This document shows, one piece after another, positions 3,001 to 55,655 of a DNA stretch of 64,000 nt. This DNA is from Styela clava. Its lineage: Eukaryota. The notes beneath the pieces were generated by a model. That model was not told the origin of the DNA, did not search any database, and saw only the letters and a list, made by a program, of their open reading frames with translations. How positions within the stretch are numbered: position 1 is the first letter of the stretch; the number at the start of each line of letters is the position of its first letter. Made by a program: the position numbers and the translations under genes. The stretch lies in the NCBI RefSeq assembly GCF_964204865.1, contig NC_135250.1, positions 25,358,001-25,422,000 on the forward strand. The letters are read 5' to 3'.

Positions 3001-5602
3001 TGTGTAACAGCGCTGCATTCTGTTGCAGAACACCTTTTCTGGTTTCCGTTGATGGTTTGTATTCTAACGAACGGGCCTGGAAATACTGAAGCAGAATGTG
3101 TGAAATTTGAAGCTGTAAATAACACAAATTGGTTTAGAATAAGAAAAACTAGGTTGATTACTTTGGTTCGTAGTTAGCGCAACTCTGTTTGTAACACAAT
3201 TTGAATTGAGTGATTGAAGCCCAATAATTCTATTATGAGCATTCAGTGGCACCGAAAAACAATACTTGTATCGTATACTTGTATATGTGATCTGTATTGA
3301 TCAGTTCCAATTGAATATTCTTAATTTGACAATCTATTTCAATTTATATTTAATTTACGATCAATATTTAAGTACTAGCTTATTGGACAGGAAGTTGATA
3401 TATTTGAGTTTTGCTGGGACAGTTACTGTAGTGTTCTGGGTACTATAGCATTTCAACAGTTCAAGCTTCCTTCTAATATCGTATGATTTTTGTGGAATTG
3501 TTGTTGAAAATTATGTTTGAACTTTGTGTGCATATATTTGAGTTTTGCTCCATTGTTTCTTTAGATAGAACCTATGCAACTTGTTACGTTTCCTTTACCT
3601 CCAGTTGCGCACGAATTGAGAAAAATCAATGAATATTACCTTTCTGGCAAATGTAGTAGATGATTTCATCACAAGATATATCAATCCACTCATACGTTTT
3701 TTTTCCAACTGCCAAACAATCTTCATTGCCAAAATTGTTTGGTTCATTCGAATACCTGATAAATTTAGAAGCCGAATTAATTATTCTAAAAATTATGCAG
3801 GCTCTAAGCAACTAATTTAAGAAATAGTTAGTGACAAGTTGTTACGCAGATATACCTTCTAAATATTTTCCGAACAGGAGAAGTATTGATATAATAAATA
3901 TGGAATTAAAATTTTAAATTTTAGCTAGGCATAAGTTATTCAATTGCCCCTAACAGGTATCTAGTGAGGTTTTTCGGGATTTCACCTCCGACAAAATGAA
4001 TTTGACTACGACGAATAATAAATGGCATTTTTGAAGTCATGCCGTGGTATTTCTCTTCACTATAATATTGATAATATGAATACCGCGTGGTATACAAGTT
4101 CTGAAAACTATTTCACGCAGAAAATATATTGTTTATTAAATTCTTTTGCAACTTTTATAAATAAAATTGAAAAACAAACCAGTTTTGATATCCCACTTCT
4201 CCTCTCATTATCACATTAGTACCATCCTGCCATTTCCAATCTTCTTCTATTGCTATGTCGTTTCCACCGATATAAAATGTGTTTACCATGTTTTGTAAGC
4301 TAATAATATAAAATTGTATCATGTTTTTTTAAAGAAAATAACGGAATCATCGATTAAAAATTGAAAAAACGACCGAAAGAAGAGCTGAAATAGACCACGT
4401 ACGCGCTATGATAACTAAAGAGCTTTTTTGTGATGAAGCAAAGTATAAATAAAAACGCTGATTATGCCAGGTAGCCAATAATCAAAAATACCTTTATTTG
4501 TTGAAGCAAAGTAGTATTAAAAAAGCGTTGATTATGCCAGGAAGTCCGCAATAAATAAATAAAATCAGTTAGTTCCGGTGTTTGTGTGATTTGCAAACTT
4601 GAATTGATTTGTTTAAAAACTAATTCCTAAAAAACCCATTCCGTAAAGAACAGTTTTTGCTTCAATTTATTCAAATATACAAACTTGTGAGCTATATAAA
4701 TTCTATTGATCCCTGCTTTTATTGTATTTACGATAGACTACTTGTTTCAATGCAACACATCCAAGGTAAATAAATCGCTATGTATATGTTAAAACTAAAA
4801 GGATTTCTGGATACATCAGGCTGGGATTGGTTATACGATATATTGTAAAAATAAAGAAGTACATAGTTGGGATTATTGCAGTACTACTATATGCTTTCTA
4901 AAAGAAACATAAAACCTTCAGCTCTTTTACATCACTGTACAGACAATATCCTATTTCAACTCACGCTTATAATAAGTGTTTAATCTACATCGAGATGGTA
5001 CAAACAACAGTGAGATAATCAATTCCGCTTATTTACTGCTAAAGTTTCATTCAATACATAGAAATATTCACATATTAAATAACACCAAGATATCAAAAAT
5101 AAGTTTCTTTTTAACTCACTCGAATGCTGAATTAATGACTGTCGTCATTCTCTCATTATCAACTTTAGCTAAGTAACCTCCCAATCTTTCACAGAATGTT
5201 TTTGCTTTTTCGTAAGTTTTACCTTGTTTGTAAAAAAGCAGTTCAAACCCATCAACACATTCTTTCTTCCAGGGATCTGAAACAAAACGGTATCTGGAAT
5301 TGTAATCAGATTCAAATTTGAACAATTGAATAAATAACAATTCTCATTTATTAACAGAAAATTTGACAAAAGATAAAATTTGAATGATAGATTGAATAAG
5401 TATACAATACTTTAAAAACTGAGATTTTTTAATTTACTACAAGGAAACTTTGTATTTGTCCGTGAGAACGCAACCTATTCATAAACAAAAGGTTTTCATC
5501 AAGATATGACCAAAAGTTTTTATTCATAAAATTCAACTAACCTTGAGCTGAAACACTGGTGATAAGGATCGAAAACAATATCACCAAAATTTTAAGATTC
5601 AT
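1..5602 (-). CDS. Receptor copy A: CTLD(EPN)-Ig-FN3-FN3-TM-Tyr-rich tail; 11 exons, last exon runs off the window start (>=529 aa)
   Basis: GT-AG exons in consistent phase: 5602-5542 (signal MNLKILVILFSILITSVSAQ); 5276-5120, 4299-4180, 3755-3640 (CTLD: AKTFCERLGGYLAKV, FYIGGND..WKWQDG, EPNNFGNEDC..WIDISC..YICQK); 3085-2819 (Ig: C..WYK..LNLQNANIADAGSYSC); 2751-2649, 2333-2219, 2040-1858, 1491-1302 (two FN3: ISWQP..NLSPTTTFQIKITA; ISW..PNRNYSASI); 699-529 (TM NIVSFVIGFLIPLIFYVIFGLII, then HNYENI); 105-<1 (SYSNVLQETAGYEQALP). No stop in the spliced frame. The Ig acceptor was chosen by paralog conservation; alternative in-phase AGs exist. Confidence 0.88.
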
Positions 5603-6302
5603 CTTTATTATTCGAAAGACACAGTTTTCGACATTTGTCGTCAACTTAAATATTACAACCTAATTTTATTTCTTTTTGATCAGGTCGTTTCGGGTTTCAA
5701 TTATCATAACTGCAATGTAAAAAATAAAATTAATAAATGCCACTTTAAAAAATAAAATTATAATTTATTGAAATATAAATCAAGCAACTCAAGTAAATGG
5801 ACGTGAAAAACATCACAGTTCCTATTGTTGAAGCAATATTATGAATAACGGCGAATCACGTCGACTGATTTGAACCTTTGTGACGTAGAAGATCGACCTT
5901 TTCACCAGTATGCCCAGCTACATAAATTCGTCCCTTCTCTTATATTCAGATTTTAGTTGATCATAGATCGTTGTTTGTTTAAGACTGAACTGGTTATTAA
6001 TATATTTCGACATTGCGGCAATATCCATGAGTCTTTCTTGTGGTAAATTACAAGCAGCAGAAGTGGCTGTACCTGCTATGAAGCGAAAGCATTGGAACAC
6101 TTTTTCACGAGAATACTTTGATACAGTGATAATAATTACATAACTTATGTGTAAGTTTCTTCATTCACATTTTGAAATAATTCCACTCCTACAAACCGCT
6201 ACTAATATTACCGTACCAACATTTCTCGAAACCCGCTCTACATACAATCAGGAAAAGTGAACGTAAATTGTTACGTGTGGATGTTAAACTGAGATGGCTC
6301 AC

Positions 6303-9215: not shown

Positions 9216-9304
9216 AGCAGTCATAACACGTATATTGTCACAATTTCGACATCTTCAGCAGATATTCCACTTTTACTATTATTGCTTAATTTATTTGTTT
9301 ACAG

Positions 9305-11252
9305 TTGCATATTTGTACTCGTTCACAAAAATTTGAAGACATCTGATGACGTACTTTCTTTGACTGACATGATAAAACTTAACGATAAAGTGGATGGAGA
9401 TGAATATATTGCTAAAGCAATATCTGTGAAAAGGTTAGAAGTATTTATTTTTTTTTTCAAGTATTCTACAAGGTTATTTGAGTTGATTATGTGATTTCAT
9501 GTAAATGATATTTGTCAAATTCAGGTGATGGATGTTATATATTGGGATATGAGATTTTGTTTGAACGTCATACCGAAATATATCATTGGAACTAAATGAA
9601 TTTGACTTTTCTATGCTACGCATATTTACGCCGTTCGCTTGAAAATCACATTTTTTGTCCGTGTGAACGCCATGCCATTGAATATTTTAGCATGAAGGGG
9701 AAGCGAATGAATATCACACTCGGTGAAGAATCGATGACAACATGTGATGTAATAAATATCGGAGAGTCAGGAATACAAAATGAACAATCTTCTGGAAAAG
9801 AAACTATATTAACGGGAAGAATTAGGAAACTAGATAAAGAGATCGTAATCTATACTTCTTCAAACACATGCTTTAATTGAAAGTTTTAGCATAAATGCAA
9901 TCAATACCTCTTAGTAGAGAAAAGATAAAGAAATTAAACATATTTTTTGACGCAAAATTAAATTTTTTACTTAATTCCTTCTTTAATATATAAATGTATA
10001 TAAGTATATTTTTTTAATTTATACTTTATCATTTTGTCATAATGTATAAGATAACTTATCTTGCTTCAGCATCTCAATCGTTTATTCGACGTCATCTGGC
10101 GACCAAATAATTTTCAAACAAAGTCCTTCAATCACTCTGAACAGCGCTGCTATAGATGATGAGGGTAAGGAAGACTATTCTATATTTCTGTGTAATAGAG
10201 AATTTTGGTCTAGGTCAATAGGTTGAGATAAAAAAAGAAGTGAGTTATCTCAGTGAGAATATAAGCCTAACCCGGTTTGGGTCCAACTCCAAGCAATGTT
10301 ACGAGAGAATACTTTTGAAAAATTTCCAGAAAAAGAAAACTTGACATGGAACATTGGCTCGAAGATGAAGTGTTATTTTATCGGAAGCACTTTTACTATC
10401 TTTTCGGATTTTTAAATATTGATCATGTGACTATTTTTAATGATTATGATTTTTTTCAATTTTATTAGTATTTTTGAAACCAAAGCTCTTCAAAATCATC
10501 TGGAATTAATGGTAATATTTTTTTTTAGAAAAACATTCATTCGAGTTCAACATCGCGAGTTTCGTGATCGGTTTTCTTATTCCTTTTGTCTTCTTGGTCG
10601 TCTCTGCCGGGATCATATACAAATTGAGGAAGAAAATAAAGAATCTGGAGAAAGATGCTGGAGAAAGAAGCAAATAAACACAATTACGAAACTATAAAAG
10701 GAAAAGGTACTTAGAATTAATGTTAATCAGAAAAGCATTATTCTTGTAGAAAATATTGTTCCTATATAACCAACTAGTTTTATGAATATTCAAAAAAATA
10801 TTAATAATTACTCATATTGTAAACACAACAGAATATGTTCGGGATCAAATTTGTATCTCCAATTTATTTATTATTACATAGAATGAATCTTAGTAAGATT
10901 TAAAAGTTTAGTAAGTTATTGATGTACAAATATTATAACCCGGCGATTTGCAATTTCAAAAAACCCCAAGAAAATTTGCATAATAAAACAAATGTAAATG
11001 TATTTCTGAGAGACATGTTCATCTTGAATTACTGAAATTTAAAATGGATTGGTCTAATATTAGCCCATTACACCAATATTATAAATCTTATTGGAATTTT
11101 TATTTAATTTGATTCTCAAGCAATTAGCAAATCCTTCCAACAACCAGTTGTATCCGAATGTACTGCAAGAAACTACCGAAAACAAACAAGCTTATTCTGC
11201 CACAACTATCCAAAGACATGGGGAATCAGCTTACGAAACTTACAACGCCTAA
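9305..11252 (+). pseudogene. 5'-truncated receptor fragment E (three of the four membrane-proximal-domain exons, TM exon, tail exon)
   Basis: Exons 9305-9433 (CIFVLVHKN..YIAKAI), 9691-~9845 (NITLGEESMTTC; normal donor deleted), 10070-10164, 10529-10706 (TM, +7 nt frameshift from a TGGAGAAAGA duplication) and 11128-11252 (LYPNV..AYETYNA*). The ten upstream exons are absent. Confidence 0.85.
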
Positions 11253-11591
11253 TAAACTCAATATCTATTCGCATATTATAAAAAGAAAAAAAGGTTGGTC
11301 TTCATAAAACACTCGGTGATGTTGTGACTAACAATGTCTTAGCTGTTGGTTAGAATATTTCAATCGTGATGGTGTCAATGGATAAAATTCTTACAAGTCG
11401 ACTCAATTATCAATCTCCATCCAATTTCTCTGAAGCTGATATGAATATACTAATATCATACGGCATGTATTCTCATTTTCAATTATGAAGAAAATTGACT
11501 TAAAATTAGCCACGTAGTAATTCGATGATATGCCCAAAATGCCCATCTTCCGTCGGCCAGGGTTTTTCTATTGATATGGATGTCTTAATCT

Positions 11592-11810
11592 GGTGCTCTC
11601 GAAATTTGCGTACCAAGATGGCGTACACCGGAACGTAGTATGTGTACCGCATGTGTAATTTTATTCCAATTTTCCATATTTTAGTTCTATTACGAGTTCG
11701 AGGACTAGCCAAGTGACTACCGTAGTATTTGTATCTGAAATTAAGGCTTAACCCTAACCTGGTACATATACTACGTTCCGGTGACCGCCATCTTGGTTCA
11801 CATACTTCCC
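11592..11810. mobile_element. Palindromic MITE with long imperfect TIRs (family also at 59845-60056; related ends at 39395-39602 and 51838-52225)
   Basis: GTACCAAGATGGCG..CACCGGAACGTAGTATGTGTACC ... GGTACATATACTACGTTCCGGTG..CGCCATCTTGGTTC inverted pair. Confidence 0.7.
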
Positions 11811-12407: not shown

Positions 12408-12429
12408 TATAATGAGTCAAAAATCAAAG

Positions 12430-13197
12430 GAATTTTCAAAGCTCACAAGTTTAAATATTTAAACAAATATATAGCCTACTTGTACAAAAACTGTTTTATA
12501 CATAATTGATTTTATAGTAATTATTAGCTATTATCAGTTAACCTGCCTGCGGATTATACTAGCAATATTCTTTATAGGCTATCTGGTTTTATCAACATTT
12601 TTTAATAGTACTTTGCTTTATCACGCAAAGGCTATTATGTTATTTTAATACGTCTATAGTCTCAACTTTTTAGTCAGTACTCTTCACGATGTACACTAAG
12701 GCTCTGGTCTTTACTTCAAAATAAAAAAAATGATAAGGTTTATATATTCTAAGCATATATATAAGGTGATGAAAACACCATTCATATTAGTGAAACGACC
12801 TAGCTAGAGAGGGACATTGGAAATGGCAGGATGGTACTGATGTGATAATGATAGGTGAAGTTGAATATTAATATATACCAACCAACCAAATTATTCTCTA
12901 AAAAGTCAAAGTATATACATACTGCATTTCTAAAAATGAGGTAGATTTTAGCTTAAGATAGTTCATCCAATTGGTGACTAGTACTTAACAAGTAATCCAA
13001 AAGAAGGAATTCCCCTACGACAGACAATGGCATTATTGAAGTCTCGCTTGCCGTTGAATTTGCTACACTCTTGTGGATACTACACGACATGAAAGTTATA
13101 AAAAATAATTTAAGGAGCAATTTTTTTTTTTTTCAATTTTTTTAAATATAGTTGAGGACCAAATCAGTTTTGATATCTTACTTCACCTCTCATCATT
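12430..13197. pseudogene. Decayed receptor intron-2/CTLD exon-3 remnant, with an inverted piece of the exon end at ~13157-13197 (duplicated at ~61270-62020)
   Basis: + strand TGGAAATGGCAGGATGGTACTGATGTGATAATG (WKWQDGTDVIM) with frameshifts; - strand ATGAGAGGTGAAGTAAGATATCAAAACTG (MRGEVRYQN). Confidence 0.7.
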
Positions 13198-16100: not shown

Positions 16101-16304
16101 CTGGGTGTAAAAGTGAACAGTACTGATGATTGCTCTGTCCCGGCTATGAGATAGAGATGACAATCGACACCAACTTGACTGACTACTTCAATAATAACGA
16201 CATTGTATGTAACAAGTATACCCAGTGTTTTGTCAATAAACAACTCTTTTGAATTTTTTTACATTTTTGTAATTTGCTGATAGTTACTGCATAGCTGAAA
16301 TTCA

Positions 16305-19300
16305 TCAGGCGTTGTAAGATTCGTAAGCTGTTTCCAATTGTGTTTGCTTAGTTGTCGCAGGCAGAGCTTGTTCGTAACCGGCAGTTTCTTGCAAGACATT
16401 TGATGATGATGGTTGTTTGTAAGCTAATTCTACTTGCGTTTGCTTAGTTGTCGCAGGCAGAGCTTGTTCGTAACCGGCAGTTTCTTGCAGGGCATTTGAT
16501 GATGATGGTTGTTCGTAAGCTGATTCCACTTGTGTTTGCTTAGTTGTAGCAGGAAGTGGTTGGTCGTATCCGGCAGTTTCTTGCAAGACATTTGAATATG
16601 ATGGTTGTGAAGCTGGATTGTTGGGAGGAGTTGCTAATTAATTGAAAGAATGTAATTAGCAACAAACAAAAATCGATTTAAAAGACTGATCTTGTAGAAA
16701 TCAGATCTAAGTAAACCTGTGGTAGACAGTGTGTTAAAATAATAATTTTTTAAATAAAATATCTCAGTTTTTTTCTATTACTTCATAGAAGGTTTGTTCA
16801 CAGACCAATCTCTTTCAAATTTTTAGTAATTTAATGGGCGTGACTCCTAGTAGGGCTTTAATTTTATTCACTTTTTATTTGCGGTGGCATTCCAATTTTG
16901 TATAAACTCGAGATATACAAATTGTATTGCCCCACTATTAGAACCTGTATTGATTGATAAACGTTTTCTATCCCATTAACATTGATGGCATGTGTTTATC
17001 ATTGAAGTGGAGTTAAAACTTTTATCGTGACCGTATTCTGTTGTGTTTATACACTTTGAATGACACTTCGAATTTGATTTTATGGGAATAATATTTTATA
17101 CATCAGTTCTGATTATTTCTCACTACCTTTTTCTTCTATAGTTTCGTAATTATGTTCTTTTACTTCTGCCTTTTCCTTCAAATTCATTATTTCTTTCTTC
17201 AATTTGTATATGATCCAGACAGAGACGACCAAGAAGACGAAAGGAATGAGAAAACCAATCACAAAACTGATGATGTTGAACCCGAACGCTTCTTTTTCTA
17301 AAACAAATACGTTACTCTGATTTCCCGTTGATATTTAAAGGTTTTGGGATTATAGTTTTATTAAAATTAGCAACATCATCTCTAGAATTACAAAGATAGT
17401 ATATAACGTTCACAATAAAAGAACACTTTATTCTTCTTTCAATTCTCAAAACTATTTGCTTGTTATCTTGTGTTGTTTGAAGTTTGCTAATTTTTTCCAT
17501 AATCTGGCTTTGAATTAACCAAATCTGAATATTTGTTATTCTTACCGGTATCGTTCTTAGCAGTAGTTTCCTGTTCACCTTGTTTCAACGTTATAGAGGG
17601 GCTTTGACTGAAATGTATTTGGTCACCAGAGGGCGTAGAATAAACTATCGAGACACTGAAGTAAAATAAGTTATATTATGCATTGCGGAAATAAATTCAT
17701 TAAATGAAATACTGATAAAAGATCCGATATATTATATTTGATTTGATAGCACTATTGAATAGGTAAATCAATCTAATTTGACGTTAACATATATCTTTAC
17801 TTTCTGTCGGTTTTAAAATAGCATTATAACAATACCAAAACTTTCGATTAAAAATTAAAAGTCTATGATGATCTATATATCCCTAAGATATATCTGGAAT
17901 ACCTGAACGTCTTTTTATCTAATTTTTTGTTTCTTCCTGTGAATAAAATTTCTTTTCCACGACTTTGTTCATTTTGTATCCCTGCTTTTCCGGTATTTAT
18001 TACGTCACATGTAGTCATTGATTCTTCACCGAGTGTAATATTCATTCTCTCCCAATTCATGCTAAAATATTTTATTCAATGTAAAATAGAATATGGTATG
18101 TTATGCAGGAAATACCGCTGCTACTCGAGACAATAGAAAAATGACGTTGCAACGACGCATACAAGTATATACAAATTGAAACTCTTAATATAGCAGTATA
18201 TATGAATTCAAAATACATGAAGGGTGCGGTGGTACGCACATACGCGGTATCAAAGTATCTTGTTGCATGTGCTTTGTATATATTATAGCCAAAAATTATT
18301 GGAGTAAAGTATTAGTAGTACAATGTGTTTCGTTACGGTCGTTAGAAAATTCAACGTCAAAAATCTTATAAACTCTACAACAAATAATCGCTGTTGTCCT
18401 GATATATTACATAATACATCCACTAGCTAGACGTAAAATCACGTTAACCGGGTAATCTAATTAAATGTTACTTTTTAATTGGCTTTGTCGGATTAGCAAC
18501 CAGAAATAGCAAATGAAACAAATCACCCTAGTACTTCTTACGAGTGGGACTTTCACCCGATCTATTAATTTTAATTTTACAAATAGAATTTTAAGTTGTT
18601 TATCTTATAAATCGTATTTTTTGTTTATAAATCCTGTTCAACTGAAAACACCCAATTGACAGATCACGTAGAATATTCTTCTGGAAAAAACGATTTCCAA
18701 CCTTGTCATAGGTATTGCTTTAGCAATATATTCATCTCCGCTCACTGTGTTGTTAATATTTATCATGTCAGTCATAGAAAAGTCGTCGTCAAGTTCCTTC
18801 AAATTTGTGTGTACAAGTACAAATATGCAACTGAGGTAAATAAATTATACAATATTAAAAGTTGTACTGATAGCACTATTTGTTGAGGAATGAATTCCGT
18901 ATTGTGGAATGATATTGATCAAAATAAATCAAAACTTCAGTGTCTAGTAAGCAAAGTGACTGTATTGGTGAGAGAGATGCTTAATATACCTAATATGATA
19001 TATGAACATGCTCGGTCGATTTTTATTCCAGGCTAACTATCAACCGTAGAGAAACAGACGTATTAACTTTTTGAATACCGATATATATATTATTTTCTAC
19101 TCTGTTGCATTTAGCTTACCTGACAAGGCCATTAGTCTCATCCGGTGCCTGTATTGCCAGTTCTTTGATGCCACACACGTTGATTAGGTTATCTTCAAAA
19201 CTTTCAGGCGGAAAAATCTTTGTAGGAGCTAAAACACGAGACAGTGTTTGCTAAAATAAATTGCGACAAACATGCTTACGCATTTTCACATATATTGGTT

Positions 19301-39602: not shown

Positions 39603-41863
39603 GTTTCAGAGGTTGGCATTTTAATTGGCTCTTTTAAAATGTTAGACAAATAAAATATTGCTTTGTGAGAATTTTTAATTCTTTGTGTACATGGAAACAG
39701 TAAATTTCTTTTGTGGCCCATGTAGAAATCTGAAGTTGGTTATTCGGCCAACCGACAAAGTGTTGCACATCCCTGTTTTGAGAAAAAAAATTAATTTCGA
39801 AATTACCAGCAAATGCCATGATCCTGTACTCATGATTGGACTACTCACTTATAAGTGTGACTCGTTTGACAATGTTCAAATATATATAAAAAATTATACT
39901 GATCAGAACTTCCCACGAAAGTTTGGTTTCAAAATGCAGCTATCAAAATATCAATATGAACAACCAACCACCATAATTAAGTTGGCGGCTTATAAGGCGC
40001 GGATTGAGGATAAATCGAGGTGTGACCTAGTTAGTGGTAAATCGTTAGACTCAACTACGGCGACATCGTAAGGTCTAATATATATATATAGCAGAAACAC
40101 ATCTAGCAGCGATCCATTATTCAGAACGTTGTTCGGCTCGAATAATAACGCTACAATGCCTCAAAACGAAGCAAACTATTGACTTTTAAAAGTATTAAAT
40201 TTGCATCCAAGGAACTGGGAATTATTGTTTCTCACCAAATCACCAGCCTCGAATGTCTTTGGGAGATTGATTTGCGAGGCAACTGAATTTTGTATATATA
40301 TATATATAATTTATGAAATGCAGACATACTAAACTAACTGTATTCTATATATACAACATTAATATGACCTAATGGAACATGTTTTTATATCGAATATTGG
40401 AATGCGGAGTAGAAATAACGTTTCCATATTTTCGTTCCCAAAGGTAACGTTGCTCAAATTGCTGAGAAACAACTTTTTCCTGTCATTCTTATTCCACGTC
40501 TGCATATCATTACAAAAGATTTGGAAGAATACGTACACAACACAGGGGGGTATTACACGACGCTGTCGATAGTTTTACAACCCAATATCACCCAAAACTT
40601 TTTATTTGGCCGTAAAAAAAATTTAACGCACATACATATACATTTAGATGGAGAAGGCATCCTAGCAGTTCGTGATGTCATTTTGAAATGAATTGCAGTA
40701 AGGGCGTGTTTAGTAGATGGTTTTGCAAAAAATTCTACCTTTCATTTTGATAAACAAACAAACTTCCCGAATTTGCTATTTTGATCATTTCAACTCATGG
40801 CCTTATCTATAAATATCTTTCTTAAACCTTCATATTCTAGATACGAGCCACAAGCTTGGTCATTATGTTCAATCAAAATGAATAGACTCAATGACGGTAT
40901 TACAAGAGATATAAAGTTCAGCTGTTACTAATAATATTATTATACTTATATCTGTACAAATATATTTAGATATAAAAAGGAAAATCAGCAAAGTTAATAG
41001 AGCGATACAATAATGCAAATTATTCAATCAACATATTTTCATTATTCAGCAAAATACGAGGGTAATAATTACAGTTATCAAATTAATGTTGTAAAATTAT
41101 CAAGTGTATTTATGGAAATATTTATAATCAATATGTTAGATAATTTGTCCAATAGAAGGTTTGAAATTGAGCGATGATTTGTCGTATTTGAATCAGATTT
41201 AAGTTGATAAATTCAAAAAAAAATCACATACCAAAAAGTTATGCTATGAATATGTTAACAGTCTCGTTAAAAGCTCAGCTTACAGGGCTTTACTTACGCA
41301 ACTCAGTGTTTGAGATTCTCTATTATCAACTAGTGACGATTTGTAATATTCTGGCAGAAACCCATGGCCTGTGAAAGGGGGGTATTTTAGCAATTATCAA
41401 ATTATTAAAAGACTTATAGTTTATTTGTAGTCAACTTTTAAAAATGCATATTTTTTTTCTTAGACATGAAAACACGACAAAACGTTTCTTTATTACATTT
41501 ATCAGGGCTAGAAATATAATTTACAATAGAAAATTAGTGAACTTTTCAACTGAAGCTTTTTGTTGTTGTATTATAATAGAATACACAGACTTAATAGAAT
41601 AAACAATTCATTCATGAAAATGCATGTTTTTGACATAACCTGCAGCGTTCAATGCACACTAAGTGAGCAAGTGAAGAGAGACCGGAAATTGCTTGGTCCG
41701 GCTGTAATATGAAGATATCGATCGACATTAACATGACTGACTGCTGTATAACAGACAAGCCTTTGTATGTATATTGAATGTTTTATAAAAAAAACATGGT
41801 TCAATTTTTTTTTGCCATTTCGTGGTATACAAATAAGTACCAGTATTGCACAGCTGAAGGCCA

Positions 41864-44800
41864 TTAGGCGTTGTAAGTTTCATAAGCTGTTTCCATTTGT
41901 GCTTGCTTTGTTGTCGCAGGAAGAGCTTCTTCGTAACAGGTAGTTTCTTGTAGCACATTTGAATATGGTGGTTTGAAAGCTGGGTCGTTGTGAGGAGTTG
42001 CTATATAAGTTTAAAAAAATGTTTAATTGAAAAATTCCAATTTGATTTAATTTGAATAATTGATAAGAAATAAAATTTATGTATACAAATGGCGCGTAGG
42101 TAGATTCTTTCAACTGTTTCATAATCTTTATTTTCTGGACTTGGAAAAAAATACAAACAATGTGAAGAATAACGTTTGTATAGAGACTTTCTGTACTACT
42201 GGACTGAAATACCGAACCATTCTCTGTCATATTTTAGCAATATAATATGATCACGACCCCGAAAATGGCATTTAATTTATATGTTTTAGACAATTATTCC
42301 CATGCTCTTCCAAATTTGTTTATATGTATGTCCACACATTTTGTCATTGCCAAAGGAAAAAATAACTGGAGAATATCAAATTTACTTATTTACAGTTAAA
42401 AATGATCAATGGGTTGATCAGAACTATTTTTGTATAAAACGGAGATTTTTAAATCTGCATTAATTCTCAGTACCTTTTACTTGTATAGTTTCGTAATTAT
42501 GTTCTTTCGTTTTAGCATTTTTCTTCAAAATCTTTATCTTCTTCATCAGTTTGTATATGATTAAGGCAAACACTACGTAGAAGGTCAAAGGAATTAGAAA
42601 ACCGATCATAAAACTGATGATGTTGAATTCGAACGGTTTCTTTTCTAAAAAATTACATTATTTTAACAAAAACTCAAAATTAAAGTATTCCCCTATATTA
42701 TTAAAGGTTTTAACAAGCATAAATCATCGCTTGTTGAGGGAAATGACATAATCATCATTTCTAAAATGAACATTTGAATGACATTAATCCCGAATTGAAA
42801 GAATAGTTTTCTGAACAATATATATTATAGTGCATGATTCCCAAACTTTTATTTTTTATTTTTGAAGAATATGTTTCACATCAGCTGGAGTCTGCTACAA
42901 TCATAAGTCACTGTCCTAAAGTTTTGATTGGAAAATTATATAGTTCTCAAAACATAATCATTTAGTTTCCTTTTCCCTTGAAATATTTCCTGAAACTTAA
43001 TACCGATTAAGGTTTTAGACGAAATCATTAATACAGTATGGTTTATACAGTTCTTTTAATATCGGTCAATTAAAACCAAAGAAAACGTATCAGAAAATTC
43101 TAACATCTCGGCCCATAAACGAGAATTAGAACCTAATTTACCAAAATCTCTACAATTCCAGTTCCTCATAAATTTCATTTGAGTGATTGAATTCTCAATC
43201 ATCACTTCCAATTTAGTTTGATAAGGATAAAAATTTGAAGGCGTAATTAGTGAATCCAATTTATACCTGTTGGATTTCCCACACAAGTACCTTTGACCAG
43301 CCAAACGCAGTTGAATATTTTCATCGTAGCGGAATAGTTACGATTTGGTTCTGGCTGAAATAAATACCAGGACGATGACGTCACGTTTATTAGTTTCGTG
43401 TCCGTCTTCACGTTTAAATTACGAGAGGAAACCGGGGTTGAAGTTAGATTCAGTACCTATAAATCAACAGATAAAAATTTGCCTCGTGAATACTCATGTT
43501 GTTGTACCGACTTCTGCAATATATATTCGTTATATTCTTCCCTGAAAATGCCTTGTTGGTGGATAAAAAAAGATCTTAAAGCTAGTGCAAACGACCCAAA
43601 TTTCAACTTGATATGAATCAAATATAAAATACAGTATTGTAAAATCTATACATCATATTCGTTGACAAAGACAGATAGAAATACGTTCGTTAGTAATTGT
43701 GTGGCTTTGTGATAAGTCAGAATTTCACGGTACGGATAATTTCTAAATTCAAATTACATATACATTTAGCCCAATCTTTGAGGAAAAGTGTTTCGTCATT
43801 CATGAATGCAACAAGTGACTTACCACAGTATATGAATCACCACTCTCTGTCTTGTTAGATAAGATCCAAGAGATGACGCAAGTTTGCATATTTTGGTACT
43901 GAGTAATAGATGACGATTCAACAGATAAACTTACTCCCCCTGTTGTAGCACTTTGGGTGGTGGAATATTTGGTTGTGCAATTATCTTTTGTTACACATGC
44001 AGTTATCTGACAAGAAGGGATTTATGAATACATTGAACTCAATCGGACATCAGCTAAGCGACACAAAAAAATTAGCGGCAAAAGCAAGATAAGGAAATGC
44101 ACCGAATAAAGGGGCGAAAGATTTAACGCAGCAACAATACCAATAAAAACATTAGGTATGTATTCACTATGAGCACTATTTCAAACATAAACTGTCGGAT
44201 CCGGATTTTACGCTTGATAGTGAAAATATGAGTGTTCAAAAGAGCAAACCCTGCTTCAAACGTTAGAGTGATTCGAATAGAGACACATTCTGCCAAAATA
44301 GTCGCACAGAATAGGTGCGGAAAAAATTAATAGGTTTGTGAACAATATGATGAAATATTTAATATTGCTTACTTTGATTTGATAGGTTGTGGTGGGCGAC
44401 AAACTGGTTATTGTTGTTGACTGTTTCTCAGATGTTTGTGAATCCACCCATCTTATTGAACCACCAGAGGTCGGATTTACTTCTATTCTGTAAAACCGAA
44501 GTGAGTTTACACTGACATTAATGCAGGAAACGAGTAAATAATAATCATCCATGTAGCCCATTTTCTCTTTGGGTGAATAGTTGTAGATGTGCATGAAGAA
44601 TCATCGGACCTTTATATAATTTAGACAATTTGCTTCTACGCTGTTTAACATTATGTATGACTGGTATCGGTGTATCGGGTTGTGACCAGAGTGCTGAACT
44701 CACTCGCGCTGACGGTGCAGAATGACGAATCGGGTTCAATCCTCATATCAACATTTTACTAATAGAGGTGATAATTATGAAAAAGCAAACGGAGCAGCTC

Positions 44801-47057
44801 CGCTCTTTATGTTGCGGGACACTACAATAATTACTATAAAAATGGCCACAGATTTTGATACATTGTTAAGCTACTCGTATGCTTGGTGAAAAGGGGTGAG
44901 ATATGACAAAATCTTGCAATCAACGCCTGAGTATTCATAAATATAGACTCACTTATGTGGGAATCCAACAGCATTTTTATGTGGTTGCCATGAGATGATC
45001 AAGTTAGAGTTACAGATTTTATTTGATATTTCATAAATTGTGGGTTTTCCATTCACTGCAAAGTAAATAAAACAATAATGTTAACGAACGGGTACTGATA
45101 GATGAGCTTATATTTATTTAATTACCTTCATATGATACTGTTTTACTTTTCCAAGTTTGGCCAATTCGAAAACGGCAACTATACGATCCCGCGTCTGCAA
45201 TATTTGCGTTTTGAAGATTCAATGTTGCTGAACCTGTTTGTATCGTTTGATAAACTATACTTGTATTTTCATTCGATACTTTGTTGGATGCTTTATGCCA
45301 TTCAACTTGTGTTGCAGTGCTGCAGTTTGTTGCAGAGCACATTTTTTGATTGCCGTTGTTAGTTTGTATTTCAACAAGAGATCCTCCGAATTCTGATGCA
45401 GAACGTTTAAAATTTGTCATAAATGAGACAAATTGATTTATGGAAGGCTTGTTTATTTTCATTGCTTCCTGTTAGCGGGTACGCTGTACATTAGAACCAT
45501 CTTAAGTATTTTCATACCAATCAGAATTGATGAATTTTTAATGAGTTTATTAAAAAAAATAGAAAAGGCCATGACAAGTCCTAATAATTATCTTTTTTCT
45601 TTTGTCGTTTTTAATTTTATTTATTTTCTTCTATTGCTATAATAGGCAGTCAGTGACACCAACTTCCGTATATTAAGTCGAACGAATAAAAATCTCAAAG
45701 TTACCTTTTTGACAAATGTAGTAAAAGTTTCCATCACAAGATACATCAACCCACTGGTACCACTCTCTGCCAACTGATAAACAGTCTTCATCGCCGAGAC
45801 TGTGGCTCCCGCCGTTGGGTTGATTACCTCTCCTGTAATATTTAAAATCACGACTACTCACTTTATGAAGAGAAAAACAATAATACAATCGTTTCCGAAT
45901 TGTCTATGTTTTCAAATTTTTGTAAATAAAAGTAAGAAACAAACCAGTTTTGGTATCCTACTTCTCCTCTCATTATCACATCAGAACCATCCTGCCATTT
46001 CCAATCTCCCTCGTTAGCTCTGTCATTTCCACCGATATAAAACGTGTTTTCTTCAAATTTTATTCTAGGAATATATATTTCTAATTTGTTTTATAAAGGC
46101 TTGCTTTAGAGAACTTCGACAGAAGAATTTAAATGCCCCCTTATTCGCTAAAACCTATGTTTCACAGTCCATAAGCAGAAAAGACGTTTTGAATAGTACG
46201 TGCCCAATTCTTCAGTTGCAGTGCTGAAAGTCCATTCGATCAGAGACTTAACCAGGGGGTGATTTTGGGAGTCGGACCCCCATTTGAAATGTAAAAAATA
46301 AAGAAAAAAACAATTTTTTTGTGTCAAACATAGCAGCTTGAAACACTTGTTAGACCCCCAAGACCCATGAAAACACACGTTTCCTGTCGGACCAGCCATT
46401 GGTATGTTATAAAGAGGAAATTCGAAATTTCAGACCCTACCCCATCAAATTCCTGGCTACGCCCCTGCATTCAATTGTAATTCATATTATAAATAGCTTC
46501 GACATAACAAAAATATTTTTTATCAACTCACGGGAATGCTGAATTAATGACTGTCGTTATTCTCTCATTATCAACTTTCGCCAAGTAACCTGCCAATCCT
46601 TCACATGAAGATTTTGCCTTGTTGTAGGTTTTACGTTGTTTGAAGAAAAGAAGTTCAAACCCATCAACACACTCTTTCTTCCAAGGATCTTAGTACGAAA
46701 TATTTGTCATTTATATATATCTTTTTTAATATTTAGCAAAATTTATTATAACACAACTATTTGTTTATTAACATTTTTTAATAGGTTGAGAGTAATGGCC
46801 TCATTAATTTTAAAAACTGATCAAATATATTGTGTTCCTCATGCAAAAGAAAATTGTTACAATGAAAACATATATCTTAGTGATAGTGTTGACAAAACAA
46901 AATTATACTTTTTCCAACTATACAAATCCTATTCCTAAACAAATTGTGTGAACAAGACATAAACAAATGTTTTAGTTACAATACCTAACTTACCTTGACC
47001 TGAAACACTTTTACTGATAATCAAAGCAATAATCGCAGAAACCAACCTAAAGTTCAT
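41864..47057 (-). CDS. Receptor copy C: CTLD(QPN, longer loop)-Ig-FN3-FN3-TM-tail with one repeat unit; 11 exons, 544 aa
   Basis: Exons 47057-46994, 46688-46532, 46064-45945, 45832-45705, 45392-45126, 45055-44953, 44487-44373, 44006-43824, 43456-43267, 42644-42474, 42000-41864. All GT-AG; 1635 nt; ends ..PYSNVLQETTCYEEALPATTKQAQMETAYETYNA*. Confidence 0.9.
46241..46467. mobile_element. hAT-type MITE in intron 2 of copy C
   Basis: Ends CAGAGACTTAACCAGG / CCTGGCTACGCCCCTG; TSD CATTCGAT / CATTCAAT. Confidence 0.7.
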
Positions 47058-48620: not shown

Positions 48621-49300
48621 GTCATCCTTGGTATTCAGATATGATCTAGTTTCTGTCATTGGCCTCGATAATCACTGAATTGATTTAATTGAAAAGTTGG
48701 GAAAAGGCGTGGATGCGTCGTAAAAAGCTGGTTGGAATTCAAAGAACTCGATTTCAACTCTGATTATGAAAGTTGTAGCAAAGCAAAAGAAAACACATAA
48801 GGTATTAGAGAAAATACTGTTCTTCCGGAATAATTCTTATAAGAATGGAGATTTGCAGAATGAAATACAAATTTACACAAACAGGCAATCACTAAATTGC
48901 TGTAGTCGGTGCCGAAACTGGCAGTAGACTTTTCCGCCTAGACTCCAGAACACTGCTTTACAGACCTTAGCCATTTCGAAGCCAATTCTTAACATCAAGT
49001 CTTGTACAAATTCTGGTCATCGGAGCGTCTGGTCGGTCAGAAAACGCTTTTGTTTGTCGGGCAATATAGAACAACGTTCAGAAATATTGTATAACACAAA
49101 AACCAATCAATAATTGAATTATAAAAAGAAAAAACCTCAAATATATAAAAAAAAATAACACAAAAACGAAAGAACAGTGCATATGCAGCAAACAATATAA
49201 TATCACGGGGTCGCTAAAATCTCTCTTACAATGCCAAGTGATTTAAAAATCTCTAGGGACGATTTGCAAAATAGAAAATGATAACACATACTCTATGATA

Positions 49301-49989
49301 TTAGTAAGCTGATTCCCCTTGTGTTTAGGTAGCTTTGGTAGAACAAGCTTCTTCGTTTCCTGTAGTTTTTTGCATCACATTCGAATATAATGGGTTGTTG
49401 GAAGGAGTTGCTAATTGGTTGAAAAACAAATTTAAACAATTCCAATTAGATTTAATATATTGGTGTAATGGACTAATATCGAACCAATCCTATTTTAAAT
49501 TTTAGTAATTTAAGATGGACATGTCTCTCAGATGGGCATTCACATTTATTTCATTATGAAAATTTTCTTGGGGCTTTTCAAATTTGCAAATCTCCGTGTC
49601 CTTATATTTATACATCAATAACCTACTAAACTTTTTAAATCTCACTAAAGTTCATTTCATGGTATTATAAATAAATTGAAGATACAAATTTGATTGCGAC
49701 CATATGTTGTTGTAATTACAATATGAATATTTATTTATTTTCTTGAGTAGTCATAAAACTATTTGGTTATATAGGAACAATATTTTATCCAGGGAATAAT
49801 GCTTTTCTGAAAAACAATTATTCTAAGTACCTTTTTCTTTTATAGTCTCGTGATTGTGTTTTTTTGCTTCCACATATTTTTCTTGATTATTTATTTTATT
49901 CATCAATTTGTATATGATCCAGGCAGGGACTAGCAGAAAGATCAAAGGAATAAGAAAACCGATCACGAAACTGATGACGTTGACTTTTT
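49301..49989 (-). pseudogene. Orphan TM + tail fragment F of the receptor family
   Basis: TM exon 49989-49831 is open (NVISFVIGFLIPLIFLLVPAWII..HNHETI). Tail exon 49410-49301 has a premature TAA. No ectodomain exons upstream. Confidence 0.82.
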
Positions 49990-51837
49990 CTAAAAAAACA
50001 TATTACTCTGAATTCCAGATTATCTTGAAGCGCTTTGAGTCCAATAAATATTGATAAAATTGGCAAAAATCATATTCTTCAAAAATGGTCGCTGATCATT
50101 ATTTTCAAATCCGAAAAGATAGTGAAGGAGGCGAGCGTATTCCTAACACTCAGCCCGATGAGTCACACCGCCGCGTTCCTCTAATTTACAACAAAATTAT
50201 CAATTTCGATAACTTACTAACGCTACAAATATTTTTATTATGTATTTATCATGTTCATAAATATAAACCCTCTCTCCTTTTGTAATTGAGGAAACATTGT
50301 CATTAAAAAGAATGCATCGCATTCACTTGTCAATTTTTGATATTGTTAGATTTTACGCTTCCTGCTATACGATATTTGTCATATCTAACCTCGGGATTGA
50401 AGAATACGACAAATGAAAAAGTTTCTTGAAGTTTGTTGATAATGGCGTAATTTCTTTTTGAATTTATTGTTGTCAATCTTTTGATGACAGGAGACTATTT
50501 GTTCAACAGAAAGTTGACTTAGAAGAAAAATGTTTTAATCCATAATTACTTTTTGACATTTTTTTTATATCTATTCCAGTATTTTTATCATTCGATTTGT
50601 TAATTGCAGCGAATTATTTATCGAGATATCATCTGAATACAAGTAAAACTGTTTTTTTTTTTTTTAATTGGGACAAAACTGGCTCAACGGCAATATTAAC
50701 TGGCGTTAATCATTTAAATGAATTTTCAGGGTCAGTTGCAGAAAAGGACAATCACTATATGTCCTGATTTGTTTGCAAACGAACATTTATGTAATAAAAA
50801 ATAAATGTGTGACTGAGTGTAGCTCTATATAACAAAACAAATTTCTTACATTTAATATACGTAGTATTTAATCCATTCATTAATTTTTTTTTTCATAACG
50901 AAACTATTAATTCTCTAATTATTTAATCACAATTTATCATGCAGTTTTTCCAAATTTAAAAAAGTTAAAAATAATCAGACCGAAATATTAGATTCGAAAC
51001 ATTCTGATTTGAAATTTGATTCAAAAATGAAATATTCGAAAATTACATCCCTATCTTTGTTCATGAGATCTGCTTTGCAACATCCAAGAGATGAGCTTGT
51101 GAGAAATGATCCGAGATTAAATTCTAAAAAATCCAAACACGTACAAAAAAGTATCAACATATGCTATTCATTGTAAGTACACGGTTCTTAGTTTTCTTTG
51201 TGATAAATATCAGTCATTCAGAAATTAAATGTACAGGACAAGGGACCGTTATCGCGTGGTATATTGCCCCCAATCGTCTTCGACTGTGTATAGATTCAGA
51301 CAGAAGTTCTTTTTTACTTCATTTATTATTTAACACACCAATTCCTTCTTATGGTATTGCTTTTGGAATAATATTAAAAATTTTGAATCGTCAACAATAT
51401 GCTTCATTCTCTAACATTATCGTTTTATATACGGAATACAGTTGATTTGGTATTGTATAACTATTGTGCAAAATTAATCAACGTAATTGTGGGTGTAAAA
51501 GCAGGATATTATATTGGTATTAATTCGTAGTTAATATTGTGAGTTGTCCAAGCTGAGCAGTTGAGGAAAAATTACAATTACAATTGAAGCCGGGTTTTAA
51601 ATTTTCGGTTCGACACCAGTTCCGGACTCGAAGGAAGAAATTATATTTTGAAAACTTCATCGTATACAAGCCTACGTCAATACAATGTTAAGAACAATTA
51701 TGACCTAAATGTGTTTTTGGTTTTCAAAGAAAAATCAGTTTCTATTTGAAATTCCGACTCCAGGGAATTAGAAAGTTGAACTCCGGATTCTGACAGTTCA
51801 ATAATACGATTTAACACTCAAGCTACTCAACGTTGGG

Positions 51838-52225
51838 TACTCCTGAAGTATGCGCACCAAGATGTCGCATAACCTGAACCCCAACCTGGTACACAACCTG
51901 AGTTCAAGTTGTGCGCCCTCTTGGTGCGCATACTTCAGGACAGTGTTCCCTCTAAGGTGTGCGCGTGTGCGCGCGCACACAACTTTCAGAGGCCGCGCAC
52001 ACGCATAGATTTACTGCGCACATACGTATTTCGATGTAATGTAACAATGTTCTCGGTTGGCAGGTTGAGAAAGTTTGTTGTTGGCGCCCCTATTACCCGG
52101 TTAGAACGCCAAAATTTCTTCATTGGTTTTGCACAAATATTAGTCATTTCCAAAATAGTGCGCACACACCAAAATTTCTGCGCACACATACTACAAACAA
52201 TTAGAGGGAACATTGCTTCAGGAGG
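51838..52225. mobile_element. ~100-bp palindromic MITE interrupted at its end by a hAT MITE
   Basis: CTCCTGAAGTATGCGCACCAAGA ... TCTTGGTGCGCATACTTCAGGA(G) inverted pair. Confidence 0.7.
51941..52215. mobile_element. hAT-type MITE (275 bp)
   Basis: TIRs CAGTGTTCCCTCTAA / TTAGAGGGAACATTG; perfect 8-bp TSD CTTCAGGA at 51933-51940 and 52216-52223. Confidence 0.92.
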
Positions 52226-53570
52226 TTCCAAAGTTGTTTTTAAAGTGTTCAGAAATTTGTTTCACATTTCATCATATAAAGTGTATATTATAAACAGAAG
52301 ATATTCTCCCGTAAAATACTTTCCGAAGGGGGTAGGCGCATTTACGCATGCAATCTGTATCAAAAGTTTCTCTTTGATGAGCTGTTTTGATTTGCTAATA
52401 TATGATGCGGGTGTTAGACTGATCTTATTTATCCGGTGGAATAGATTTAGGAATCATTTCATTTCTGAACGATTGCAATTCTTCCAAACACAATGCTCCT
52501 GTCCTGTGTGAACGCTTATATAAAGTTTTTGTTGTGTTGTGAAAGATCATTAACAAAAAAACAAAACAAGGTTCTCACTTTTTATGTGTGAGTAAGAAAT
52601 AATATCGTAGGAGTGACAAGACTGTTGATTGAACATAGAGACGTTTACTTTTTGAAATTTATTTAGCCTAATAATGATTTGTCGAAAATGAGAGGGGTCC
52701 AGTGTAGGATGCGTGGATACCGAGAGTGACGTAGATAAACAAATAATTCATGGTTTTCATAATATGAAATTATGGCTGCAAACACAATCACAGCTGCATT
52801 AACGTTAACACATAAAAAAGTGACTCTTTCGTGTGACTTTATGCTATTGAATAAGATATAACTGAATCATGCGCACACAATTCATTATGATTGAAGTAAT
52901 GTTGATTAAATGTTTATTTTGGCATGAGTAGACAACTATTTTGGTATTGTGGTTGGAGGTAATGAATTGATTCAATGCACAATTGAAAGAAATAATAATA
53001 TTACTTATTTATTGTATGCAGAGTGGGTGTTAAGAAATGATGATGATAACGTTAGCTGACAGTGCTGAAATTTTTTAAAATGTCATTGCAGTTTTCATAT
53101 ATATCAGTATTCCGTGGTGTCGTCCACTGTGTCAGGGTACTTCCGTGAAAAAAACGATGAATTGCTTCTTGTAATTTACAATTTGACAGTTCTATTGATG
53201 TTACCATATATTGTAGAAAAAAAATAATGGATATGTTTGTCTTAGTATGATATCTTGATTAAAGTCTCGTCAGAGTAACTCACTACAAATATAAACAGAG
53301 AGCAGATACGTTAGGCCAATTATTTATGATTAACATAAAAACTAATAAACTTATATATATGATAAATGGGGAGTAGAGCGCATTTATGGAGTTTGCTCTA
53401 CTGTTTTAAATTTATTTTTTATAATAATGACTTTTGATAAAATATATTTTATACATTGCAGTTATGCTAATTGAAAATCTAAGAAAATATAATCAGAAAG
53501 AGAGTTAGAATTTAGGTTTTAATATTTGAGTGTACCATAAATGTGAAAAAGTGTTGTTCAGATAATAAAA

Positions 53571-55655
53571 ATGAACTATAGGTTGATTTCGGCAATATTT
53601 TCCTTGATCATCAGTACAAGTATTTCAGCTCAAGGTAAGTAAATAATCATAACTAAAACATTTATTTGTGCATAGTTTATACAATCTGATTAGGAATAGG
53701 ATTTGCATTGTTCGGAAAAATACAATTTTGTTTTGTCCACACTATCACTAAAAGTTTTCTTTTGAAAGAATGAACACAATATATATATTTGATCAATTTT
53801 CAAAGTGAATGAAGACATTACTCTCAACCTGTTAAAATTTAAATGTTAACCCATTATTTCCCGCCAATCTGAGCCAATTTTGACACCCCTTATTGACAAA
53901 TAGTTTTGTGATTATAATAACTTTTCGCCCAATATTAAAAAATGATAACAGTGACAAATAATTCGTCTTAAGATGCCTGGAAAAACGAATGTGTTGATGG
54001 GTTAGAACTGCTTTTCTTCAAACAGCGTAGAACTTACATGGATGCAAAATCTTCCTGTGAAGGAATGGGAAGTTACTTGGCTAAAGTTGATACTGAAAGA
54101 ATGACGGCAGTCATTAATTCAACATTCGGGTGAGCAAGGAAAAATCCACTTTTTTATTATGGGTTATTTCTTATTCAGTATACATAATGAAAAATGTGCA
54201 GTTAAGGCGAAAGGTGCCAGCGTAGCTACTTTTTTAACATTTTAAGATCTTGCATCAAGATTCATAGTATTATTTATATGATATTCTGGACAGTTTTGCA
54301 ATTTCAAATAATTTAAGTACTTCAATTACCTGACAAAAATTTCAGCGTTTACAAAATTTGCAATATTCGAAAAACTTGCAACTTTCGAAAAATTGCAGGT
54401 TGTCTTAAATTATTTTTTACATGCATTAAATTCTTATAACAAGAGAGCAGTACTTAAATATATGGACACATGAGGAAAAAAATGGGAAATGGATCATATC
54501 TTTTACCGGTAATATTGTTTTCCCAACTACGGTTGACCACCGCAACGCAACGGTCGTAAACGTGGACCCGCCATGAGATGATCAGACAAAAAATTATAGT
54601 AAAAAATTAATCACATGATGTCCACTGCAACCTTCGAAATAAATAAAAGTAATAAATAGAGACAACAGCCATATTCAAAAAACTAATTTCAAAGTATTTG
54701 GTAAAGGAGTTGGGGAGAAAAGCAACTTTTTCACAGCTAGAAAAAAATAAAGGATACTAAAAACAACATCTTAACAACATAACATAAGAGAACTTCAAAA
54801 TATTCCAATTATTTTTCGAATGAATTCAATTTTCATAAAATTCACACTCATCATAACTTTTTGTTACTAAATTGTGGTATTTTCTCCTTATTATATACTA
54901 AATAACATATAAAATATATTTTGGTCTTAGCGAGTCAGTGGTTGCCTCCTTCTCAATTTAAATTGAGGAGCATAATCCTGTCTTTACATTGAAAAAACTA
55001 TTTATATATTCTTAGCATACAAAAGAAGGAAAACTCTTTTTATATTGGTGGGAACGACGTAGCTAACAAGGGAGATTGGAAATGGCAAGATGGTATTGAT
55101 GTGATCATGAGAGGAGAAGCAGGATATCAAAACTGGTTTGTTTGTTACTATGCCCTCAAAAATTGGAAGAAATTAGGGTGTTATATTCGCAGCGTAAATT
55201 ATTCTCCAAAGCTCATAGGCGTGTAGTTTTTATTATCATTTGTGTCAGTAACTTGTTGTAAGTCGTAGACACAAGCAATTGAGTAACTATGCCGAGCTAA
55301 AACATATTGTAATCTTCTCATACTCAGTATCTGCATCGTTACCTGTTAAGTGAATAACTATTCACCAATTACATTTGATTGAAATTTATACGAAGCACTC
55401 GATCTAAAGAATATTGTTTAAATTGTTTTTTTTTTCGAACTAGCTTGATTTTTAGATTTAATAATCGCGACTTCTGAATTTACCAGGAAATGGATTCAAC
55501 CAAACGGCGAGACATCAGCTAACAAAGCTGTTGAAGACTGTTTGTCAGTTGGAAGAGAAACGTACCAGTGGGTTGATGTATCTTGTAATGGAAAATTATA
55601 CTACATTTGCCAGAAAGTTAAGAATAATTTTTCATGTTCGTTCCAGCTCAATTAA
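53571..55655 (+). CDS. Possible secreted single-domain C-type lectin (169 aa) from copy D by read-through of the dead exon-4 donor
   Basis: Four intact exons (64+157+120+169 nt = 510 nt): signal peptide plus complete CTLD ending ..YICQKVKNNFSCSFQLN*. Confidence 0.45.
54438..54790 (+). mobile_element. AACAAGAGAGC..ATATATGGACAC family element (degenerate) in intron 2 of copy D
   Basis: 5' AACAAGAGAGCAGTACTTAAATATATGGACAC and an (AAC)-rich 3' part; the end is approximate. Confidence 0.5.

Follow-up and report, generated by a model that had tools for sequence, protein, structure and literature searches.

KIR, Ly49 and Siglec are clustered families of innate receptors that are reshuffled by gene conversion. 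Under conversion, a small target with elevated divergence can be a sign that selection maintains variants, and conversion donors can include dead copies (sections of PMC3924837). For C-type lectins, EPN or QPD is the motif rule for a canonical Ca2+-dependent sugar-binding carbohydrate-recognition domain (CRD; PMC4432315). The asparagine of a further motif, WND, is a Ca2+ ligand in codakine, and QPN has already been recorded in other invertebrate lectins (both in portions of PMC12842671). A five-residue insertion helps turn mannose-binding protein into the engineered galactose binder GalMBP (excerpts of PMC2704901). Here we analyze a 64,000-nucleotide stretch of the Styela clava genome (RefSeq assembly GCF_964204865.1, contig NC_135250.1, positions 25,358,001 to 25,422,000 of the forward strand; hereafter, the window). 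It holds four members, genes A to D, of a tandem family with a signal peptide, a C-type lectin-like domain (CTLD), an immunoglobulin (Ig) domain, two fibronectin type III (FN3) domains, a transmembrane (TM) helix and a tyrosine-rich tail. Exon 4, which carries the predicted ligand loop of the CTLD, differs strongly among the four genes. We find that exchange of old loop versions between paralogs is probably the main cause of these differences, judging from patterns in the DNA and in predicted proteins.

Gene models were built from homology and splice sites. The initial annotation listed four exon-4 peptides, encoded by exons of 116, 116, 128 and 131 nt, and all four are present as written, the length in gene D being given by homology only. 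Exons 2, 3, 6 and 7 were described as length-invariant, and they are indeed constant in all four genes (157, 120, 103 and 115 nt), but exon 4 is not alone in varying: exons 1 (61, 61, 64 and 64 nt in A, B, C and D), 8 (183, 183, 183 and 186 nt) and 9 (190, 205, 190 and 173 nt) do so too. The claim that variation is concentrated in exon 4 holds among A to D, where pooled pairs differ at 39% of exon-4 residues versus 11-31% for exons 2, 3 and 5-9. This is the highest value in the mature protein, and the excess reaches Fisher p < 0.05 in four of the six pairs, which are non-independent. It does not hold for the family, in which exon 4 is average. After 17 of 38 rows were excluded from the family statistics (isoform duplicates, fragments, mis-modelled proteins, the window copies of A and B, and D) and two further divergent rows from the distances, the mean exon-4 difference among the remaining 19 family proteins is 23.7% of sites, within the 18.6-26.6% range of exons 2-9, and exon-4 entropy is average as well. 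These family comparisons use mostly predicted proteins, some visibly mis-modelled, while DNA was read for the four window genes. We also observed that residues 73-78 (B numbering; the exon 2-3 junction, with exon 3 of A at 4180-4299) vary as much as the exon-4 loop, with up to nine different residues at one site among 19 rows.

The near-identity of exon 8 between A and B, used earlier as a contrast to exon 4, is real (2 of 61 residues differ) but makes a misleading comparator. None of its 46 synonymous sites differs and the two copies of intron 8 are 96% identical, so the likeness results from recent sequence exchange. In a sliding comparison, A-B identity rises from 0.76 in the 5' part of exon 4 to 0.88-0.99 farther downstream and is 0.82 in exon 9. 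The high-identity tract begins inside exon 4 and ends in exon 9, and it is likely the product of recent gene conversion or unequal crossover.

The initial annotation ascribed the exon-4 differences to diversifying, codon-level selection on sugar specificity. We computed dN/dS with our own Nei-Gojobori script on codon alignments of A-D, with bootstrap; four sequences give little power. For A-C, exon 4 has dN 0.28, dS 0.69 and a ratio of 0.40 (95% bootstrap 0.14-0.97), compared with dN 0.12, dS 0.32 and a ratio of 0.36 in the other exons. With D included, the ratios are 0.51 and 0.39. The bootstrap probability that exon 4 does not exceed the rest is 0.42 (A-C) or 0.26 (A-D), and that its ratio reaches 1 is 0.02-0.03; the loop by itself gives 0.31-0.38. 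Selection of this kind is therefore not seen at the level of the exon, whose dN/dS is no higher than that of other exons. Both dN and dS are about doubled, meaning that exon 4 has diverged more at synonymous and nonsynonymous sites alike rather than faster at amino-acid sites. Some observations do favor codon-level selection: signal peptide aside, no exon of A-D has a higher dN than exon 4 (0.26-0.28 versus 0.12), four close pairs of proteins differ at a rate of 0.106 in exon 4 versus 0.008-0.056 elsewhere, and the 40 most variable of 422 sites include 115, 123 and 135 in exon 4 and 73-78 in exon 3 (B numbering). With a dN/dS of 0.40-0.51 like that of other exons, an average exon 4 family-wide, a nearly uniform motif (QPN in 19 of 22 family sequences) and one of the four genes broken, we consider it unlikely that such selection drives the differences.

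What recurs across the family is a small set of loops. Three versions account for 18 of 21 rows: a short N-type, NxGNED (six rows), a short G-type, GGTxEN (four), and a long one, GETxxNxxVED (eight). Gene C and two divergent proteins fall outside them. These versions are scattered over unrelated backbones of the family, those with a phosphatase included. On a tree of the other exons, loop class requires 8 changes versus 8.4 with shuffled labels (18 labelled rows), compared with 1 versus 5.3 for a control trait, the extra domain. In a reduced set, made up of gene C and the 15 proteins from the chromosome-scale annotation, loop class takes 6 changes versus 7.0 shuffled, and the three classes are rejected as clades by the approximately unbiased test (p-AU 3e-51, 9e-08 and 2e-09). 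Exon-4 distances are uncorrelated with those of the rest (rho 0.0, Mantel p 0.47), as compared with 0.29-0.80 (p ≤ 0.044) for other exons. Sister pairs of unlike loop class occur (P0007/P0025, P0009/P0010 and P0005/P0020, our labels for database proteins), and three phosphatase-bearing proteins have one loop class each. P0005 and P0020 differ at 95 of 1292 residues, with 91 of these within the first 500 and 4 in the remaining 792.

Gene B appears to preserve one such exchange. The initial annotation counted four exon-4 copies and overlooked a fifth, a dead 5' half of a long-loop exon 4 in intron 3 of B, whose acceptor lies 119 nt upstream of that of the live exon. The dead half matches P0013 at 17 of 21 residues, versus 13-15 of 21 for the other ten long-loop rows, and the 3' half of the live exon 4 matches P0013 at 21 of 22 residues. 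P0013 carries the gene id of B in another annotation, has 782 residues and bears the long loop. Only 14 of 422 residues differ between it and B in exons 2-9, and 7 of the 14, plus a five-residue indel, fall in the 39 aligned residues of exon 4. Insertion of a 104-bp block from a short-loop paralog into the long-loop exon of B appears to be the simplest account. The inserted intron end is identical to that of A at 47 of 53 positions and to the upstream one of B at 43 of 54. Use of the upstream acceptor would truncate B. None of the sequencing runs listed for the region is recorded as RNA, and paralogs and repeats crowd the alignment there. Pieces of run X6, which may be RNA, stop where the exons of B do, and their zero depth over 22315-22515 settles nothing on splicing.

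That the mosaic is an artefact of chimeric gene models or of a collapsed assembly in a tandem array seems very improbable to us. Database models P0011, P0019 and P0031 are clearly faulty, and the assembly may itself have been made from some of the sequencing runs in which the region is found. On the other hand, A and B as built from DNA match database proteins exactly: the protein of B is identical to P0002 (S. clava LOC120335142) at 777 of 777 residues, and A has 0 differences from P0012 over 529 residues. The result stands without the other annotation, the patchiness between A and B is seen in the DNA of the window, and the junction in B recurs with 0 differences in a separate contig of run X2 (spanning 22292-22475), X2 being possibly the assembly's own source.

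Several observations count against exchange of loop versions as the main cause. Within the Ig exon, residues 172-240 (its final two thirds) are just as decoupled from the rest as exon 4 (rho -0.08 and -0.05), and in the reduced set the correlation for exon 5 as a whole falls short of significance (p 0.11). The silent-change excess of exon 4 is significant in none of the six pairs (p 0.055 at best), and exon 9 shows as much of it. The family evidence comes mostly from predicted proteins, some mis-modelled, and not from DNA. For gene B, no joint skipping the 104-bp block was found among the 15 listed of 125, and P0013 may be a close paralog rather than an allele.

We nonetheless favor exchange between paralogs. 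In a birth-and-death cluster, conversion and unequal crossover would homogenise some tracts and shift old loop versions among genes. Selection may then keep several versions, such that one ligand site could be combined with various stalks and coupled to a phosphatase in some proteins and to a tyrosine tail in others; we regard this selection step as about equally likely to be right or wrong. Raised dN and dS together with moving loop versions can reflect selection to keep variants, with which they are compatible, without being proof of it. The chief alternative to this step is that old differences persist neutrally next to an indel. It needs no selection on specificity: the loop would tolerate indels, indels would hinder local conversion, old differences would persist and random exchange would scatter them. 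The uniform dN/dS near 0.4, indels in exons 2, 5 and 9 as well, the equal decoupling of part of the Ig exon and the many dead fragments in the window all agree with it, and large indels are known to disrupt conversion (sections of PMC3924837). It accounts less well for the same three versions being kept in phosphatase-bearing and phosphatase-less lineages that are ~40% diverged, for an event in B that left an in-frame exon with a different loop, and for close pairs differing most in exon 4. We hold neutral persistence to be a possible but rather doubtful explanation.

The proposal that the loop sets ligand specificity stands in part. The loop does vary, and it is the one involved in the GalMBP switch (excerpts of PMC2704901), but selection is not seen at the exon level. 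The contrast drawn between EPN and QPN depends on gene A alone: B, C and D all have QPN. Family-wide, the Q/E-P-N motif is retained, as are the glutamate that follows the loop and the WxD aspartate. Against a canonical sugar-binding CRD, which has both Asn and Asp of WND as Ca2+ ligands, the asparagine is absent in 22 of 22 sequences, with WID, WVD, WLD, WTD or WTS instead. The domain might bind a protein or another non-canonical ligand (for example a self marker, or the animal's own tunic or cell coat) and not a monosaccharide via Ca2+ site 2. In line with this, W[VILT]D replaces the WND that the sugar-binding collectin placenta 1 and collectin-11 have in our alignments, the variable sites reach exons 2-3, and a CD94-like CTLD of Ciona reportedly does not bind sugars (part of PMC5465252). 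The retained Q/E-P-N, post-loop glutamate and WxD aspartate count against it, as does the listing of clam lectins with QPN/WVD, QPD/WLD or EPN/WFD among the Ca2+-dependent ones (part of Table 4 of PMC12842671). We consider a non-canonical ligand possible but rather unlikely. Variable residues were placed by alignment to solved CTLDs, and we infer that ligand binding would take place at the exon-4 loop. In a comparison with galactose-type and mannose-type CRDs, the loop after QPD in collectin placenta 1 aligns gap-free with the 11-residue loop here, that of collectin-11 is four residues shorter, and the five-residue insertion of GalMBP is the size of the difference between the long and short loops. 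The family differs in having no glycine-rich sequence, QPN in place of QPD and no WND asparagine, and the match in loop length does not predict the sugar.

Table 1. Features of the receptor family in the window (positions are those of the 64,000-nucleotide stretch)
Feature	Position	Strand	Description
Gene A	1..5602	-	11 exons, the last leaving the window start; CTLD-Ig-FN3-FN3-TM-tyrosine tail; GT-AG open frame, 529 residues in the window
A exon 4	3640..3755	-	116 nt; EPN, 6-residue loop NFGNED, WID; short N-type
A-B tract of high DNA identity	1400..3677	-	88-99% up to about 1550, introns included; peak of 99% over exon 8; putative exchange tract
Gene B	16302..25202	-	15 exons, 777 aa; extra membrane-proximal domain in exons 10-13
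B live exon 4	22218..22333	-	116 nt; QPN, 6-residue loop GGTGEN, WVD
B inserted block (inferred)	22288..22391	-	104 bp; end of intron 3 plus 5' part of a short-loop exon 4; limits approximate
B dead half of long-loop exon 4	22392..22452	-	In intron 3; intact AG acceptor; if used, frame stops at codon 136
Gene C	41861..47057	-	11 exons, 544-aa open frame
C exon 4	45705..45832	-	128 nt; QPN, 10-residue loop GGSHSLGDED, WVD; fourth version, single occurrence
Gene D (broken)	53571..59501	+	Splice-site, stop, frameshift and deletion defects
D exon 4	55487..55617	+	131 nt by homology only; QPN, 11-residue long loop, WVD
Orphan 3' fragment of a family gene	9231..11250	+	Extra-domain exons, TM exon and tail; self-BLAST, translation and tblastn; resembles 3' part of D
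Orphan TM and tail exons of a family gene	49300..50130	-	Tail with stop; tblastn
Decayed exon-3 remnant	12750..12870	+	Self-BLAST; second copy near 61575-61700

Four exons of B are absent from A and C. An upstream exon-5 acceptor in A was considered and dropped: only the downstream one is common to A, B and C and fits the database models. Because the downstream acceptor is the shared one, the apparent frameshift of B at that place is intronic. Gene D has decayed in several ways. The base pair after its exon 4 is TT, where A, B and C have GT, and the sole nearby GT would give an exon of 130 nt. It lacks the homologous acceptor of exon 5; a stop (codon 391) and a frameshift interrupt exon 9, further stops lie in two of the later exons, and the transmembrane stretch is deleted. 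In line with decay, its Ig exon (55980-56246) encodes arginine where A, B and C keep a core tryptophan. Read-through at exon 4 could yield a predicted secreted CTLD of 169 aa. A homologue search with exon 2 of D returned no candidate and is uninformative, since known relatives have such words too.

Other parts of the window are also repetitive. Segments 9231-15727 and 58069-64000 are ~82-94% identical, and each holds a D-like 3' part and a decayed exon-3 remnant; they read as a recent segmental duplication. Introns 6 and 2 of B hold two high-copy insertions (20589-20841 and 23543-24697), and joints that skip them occur in other runs; these insertions are likely polymorphic mobile elements or else absent from paralogs. 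Inverted relatives of the first lie at 28427-28802 and 30238-30531. Between the family genes, open frames of 236, 112 and 212 codons (36928-37974 on the minus strand and 51873-52508 on the plus strand) had no Pfam match, and five other long open frames in the window had no useful one.

Family membership was assessed with Pfam and by comparison with retrieved proteins. Pfam finds a C-type lectin domain in A-type and B proteins, followed by weaker Ig and FN3 matches. The Lectin_C model (PF00059) scores 64 bits for P0001 (E 2.5e-17) and 65.8 bits for P0002, above the cut-off of 22.6, which places both among CTLD proteins, and C and D align with the same conserved CTLD cysteines. P0001 and P0012 both have 603 residues, lie on one contig and differ at two sites; gene A matches P0012, and P0001 may be a near-identical duplicate beyond the window or a variant model. 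Gene C has no close match among the retrieved proteins, the best being identical at 399 of 541 residues (among P0001-P0011), with a backbone at most 79% identical. At least 15 annotated proteins with the full ectodomain lie on one 32.7-Mb contig, and farther CTLD-bearing phosphatases and phosphatase-less forms are found on other S. clava contigs. Of 20 distant matches looked up, 18 are from S. clava and the other two are 26-27% identical. P0004, P0016 and P0018 are isoforms of one annotated gene that differ in the residues of exons 4-5, a hint of alternative duplicated exons or of merged gene models.

Some relatives are phosphatases. P0005 and P0020 join the same ectodomain, 59-60% identical to that of B-type proteins, to two protein tyrosine phosphatase (PTP) domains, and P0032 is phosphatase-bearing too. 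Among solved structures, these domains are closest to PTP alpha and epsilon (best PTP alpha, E 3e-125). Pfam detected no PTP domain in A or B, and the PTP half of P0005 gave no tblastn row in the window. The extra membrane-proximal domain of B resembles Fn3_PTPRU (score 0.89, a lead only). The family likely goes back to a receptor tyrosine phosphatase with a CTLD. Of the two directions, loss of the phosphatase is the more likely, with a root that rests on a long branch. P0033, on another contig of 20 Mb, combines a phosphatase-type stalk, including its basic stretch, with a tyrosine-tail TM exon and is possibly an intermediate or a separate chimera. The TM exons at 529-699, 17127-17297 and 42474-42644 are unlike the TM of the phosphatase forms. 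The tyrosine-tail TM exon has a weak Pfam match, below the cut-off (E 0.005-0.015), to helix 5 of rhodopsin-family G protein-coupled receptors, which may be due to either chance or a captured exon.

Gene C has a short tail. The tail of B (16320-16608) consists of three 96-bp repeats, each with at most two tyrosines; repeat number varies across the family, and tails range from 59 to 130 residues. All 15 scanned tails contain 5-9 tyrosines and at least one YxxI/L/V, and three of the 15 contain a consensus immunoreceptor tyrosine-based inhibitory motif (ITIM). Inspection of A and B by eye revealed neither the spacing of an immunoreceptor tyrosine-based activation motif (ITAM) nor a charged TM residue. 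Signalling would presumably pass through phosphorylated tail tyrosines.

Variable ligand loops are common in clustered innate receptors, so that in its first form the finding is ordinary. Mosaicism in such clusters is likewise well known; the CTLD-phosphatase architecture is less ordinary. Full-text literature searches, with most subscription papers outside their scope, found no description of CTLD-bearing receptor phosphatases or of phosphatase-less paralogs among the papers listed. The word "phosphatase" occurs 0 times in the main text of the S. clava genome paper (PMC7540406), and a paper on R3 phosphatases does not mention lectin. If the loop versions bind different ligands, they form a small natural panel for asking how a single CTLD loop determines specificity when the WND asparagine is missing.

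We compared the family to described receptor systems. With receptor tyrosine phosphatases of the PTPRU/T/K/M stalk type, it shares a stalk of Ig and FN3 domains and, in the relatives P0005 and P0020, two PTP domains. The N-terminal domain here is instead a CTLD, and genes A-D have a different TM exon and a repeated-tyrosine tail in place of the PTP domains. Among ascidian proteins, the Fester co-receptors of Botryllus (FcoR; portions of PMC12582321) are likewise type I membrane proteins with polymorphic clusters and tyrosine motifs; identity with them is ruled out, as their ectodomain is given there as Ig-Sushi-Ig-Ig and that of the present family is CTLD-Ig-FN3-FN3. The ITAM-bearing hemocyte glycoprotein of Halocynthia roretzi, also an ascidian membrane protein, has tail tyrosines that are phosphorylated in defence reactions (part of PMC5465252). 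Compared by description only, it differs from B, whose conserved YxxI and YxxV are 19 residues apart, which is not ITAM spacing.

A tandem cluster, dead copies, patchwork exons and ligand-facing variation are common to this locus and to the major histocompatibility complex and plant R genes (as covered in sections of PMC3924837), and innate receptor clusters likewise carry tyrosine motifs in the tail. As in paired receptors, we found a tandem cluster with dead copies and exchange between paralogs, and similar ectodomains on two signalling modules. The locus is a candidate paired-receptor system that arose independently in the sister group of vertebrates, and gene B likely retains a loop swap. 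A more speculative and, in our judgment, improbable reading is that of a tunicate paired-receptor system built from a receptor phosphatase, in which phosphatase and tyrosine-tail receptors share three loop cassettes moved by germline recombination. Were it true, each specificity could be connected to either an off signal or an on signal when self is told from non-self. Unlike paired innate receptors, in which an ITIM is set against a charged-TM adaptor, the signalling forms here carry an intrinsic phosphatase or a tyrosine tail.

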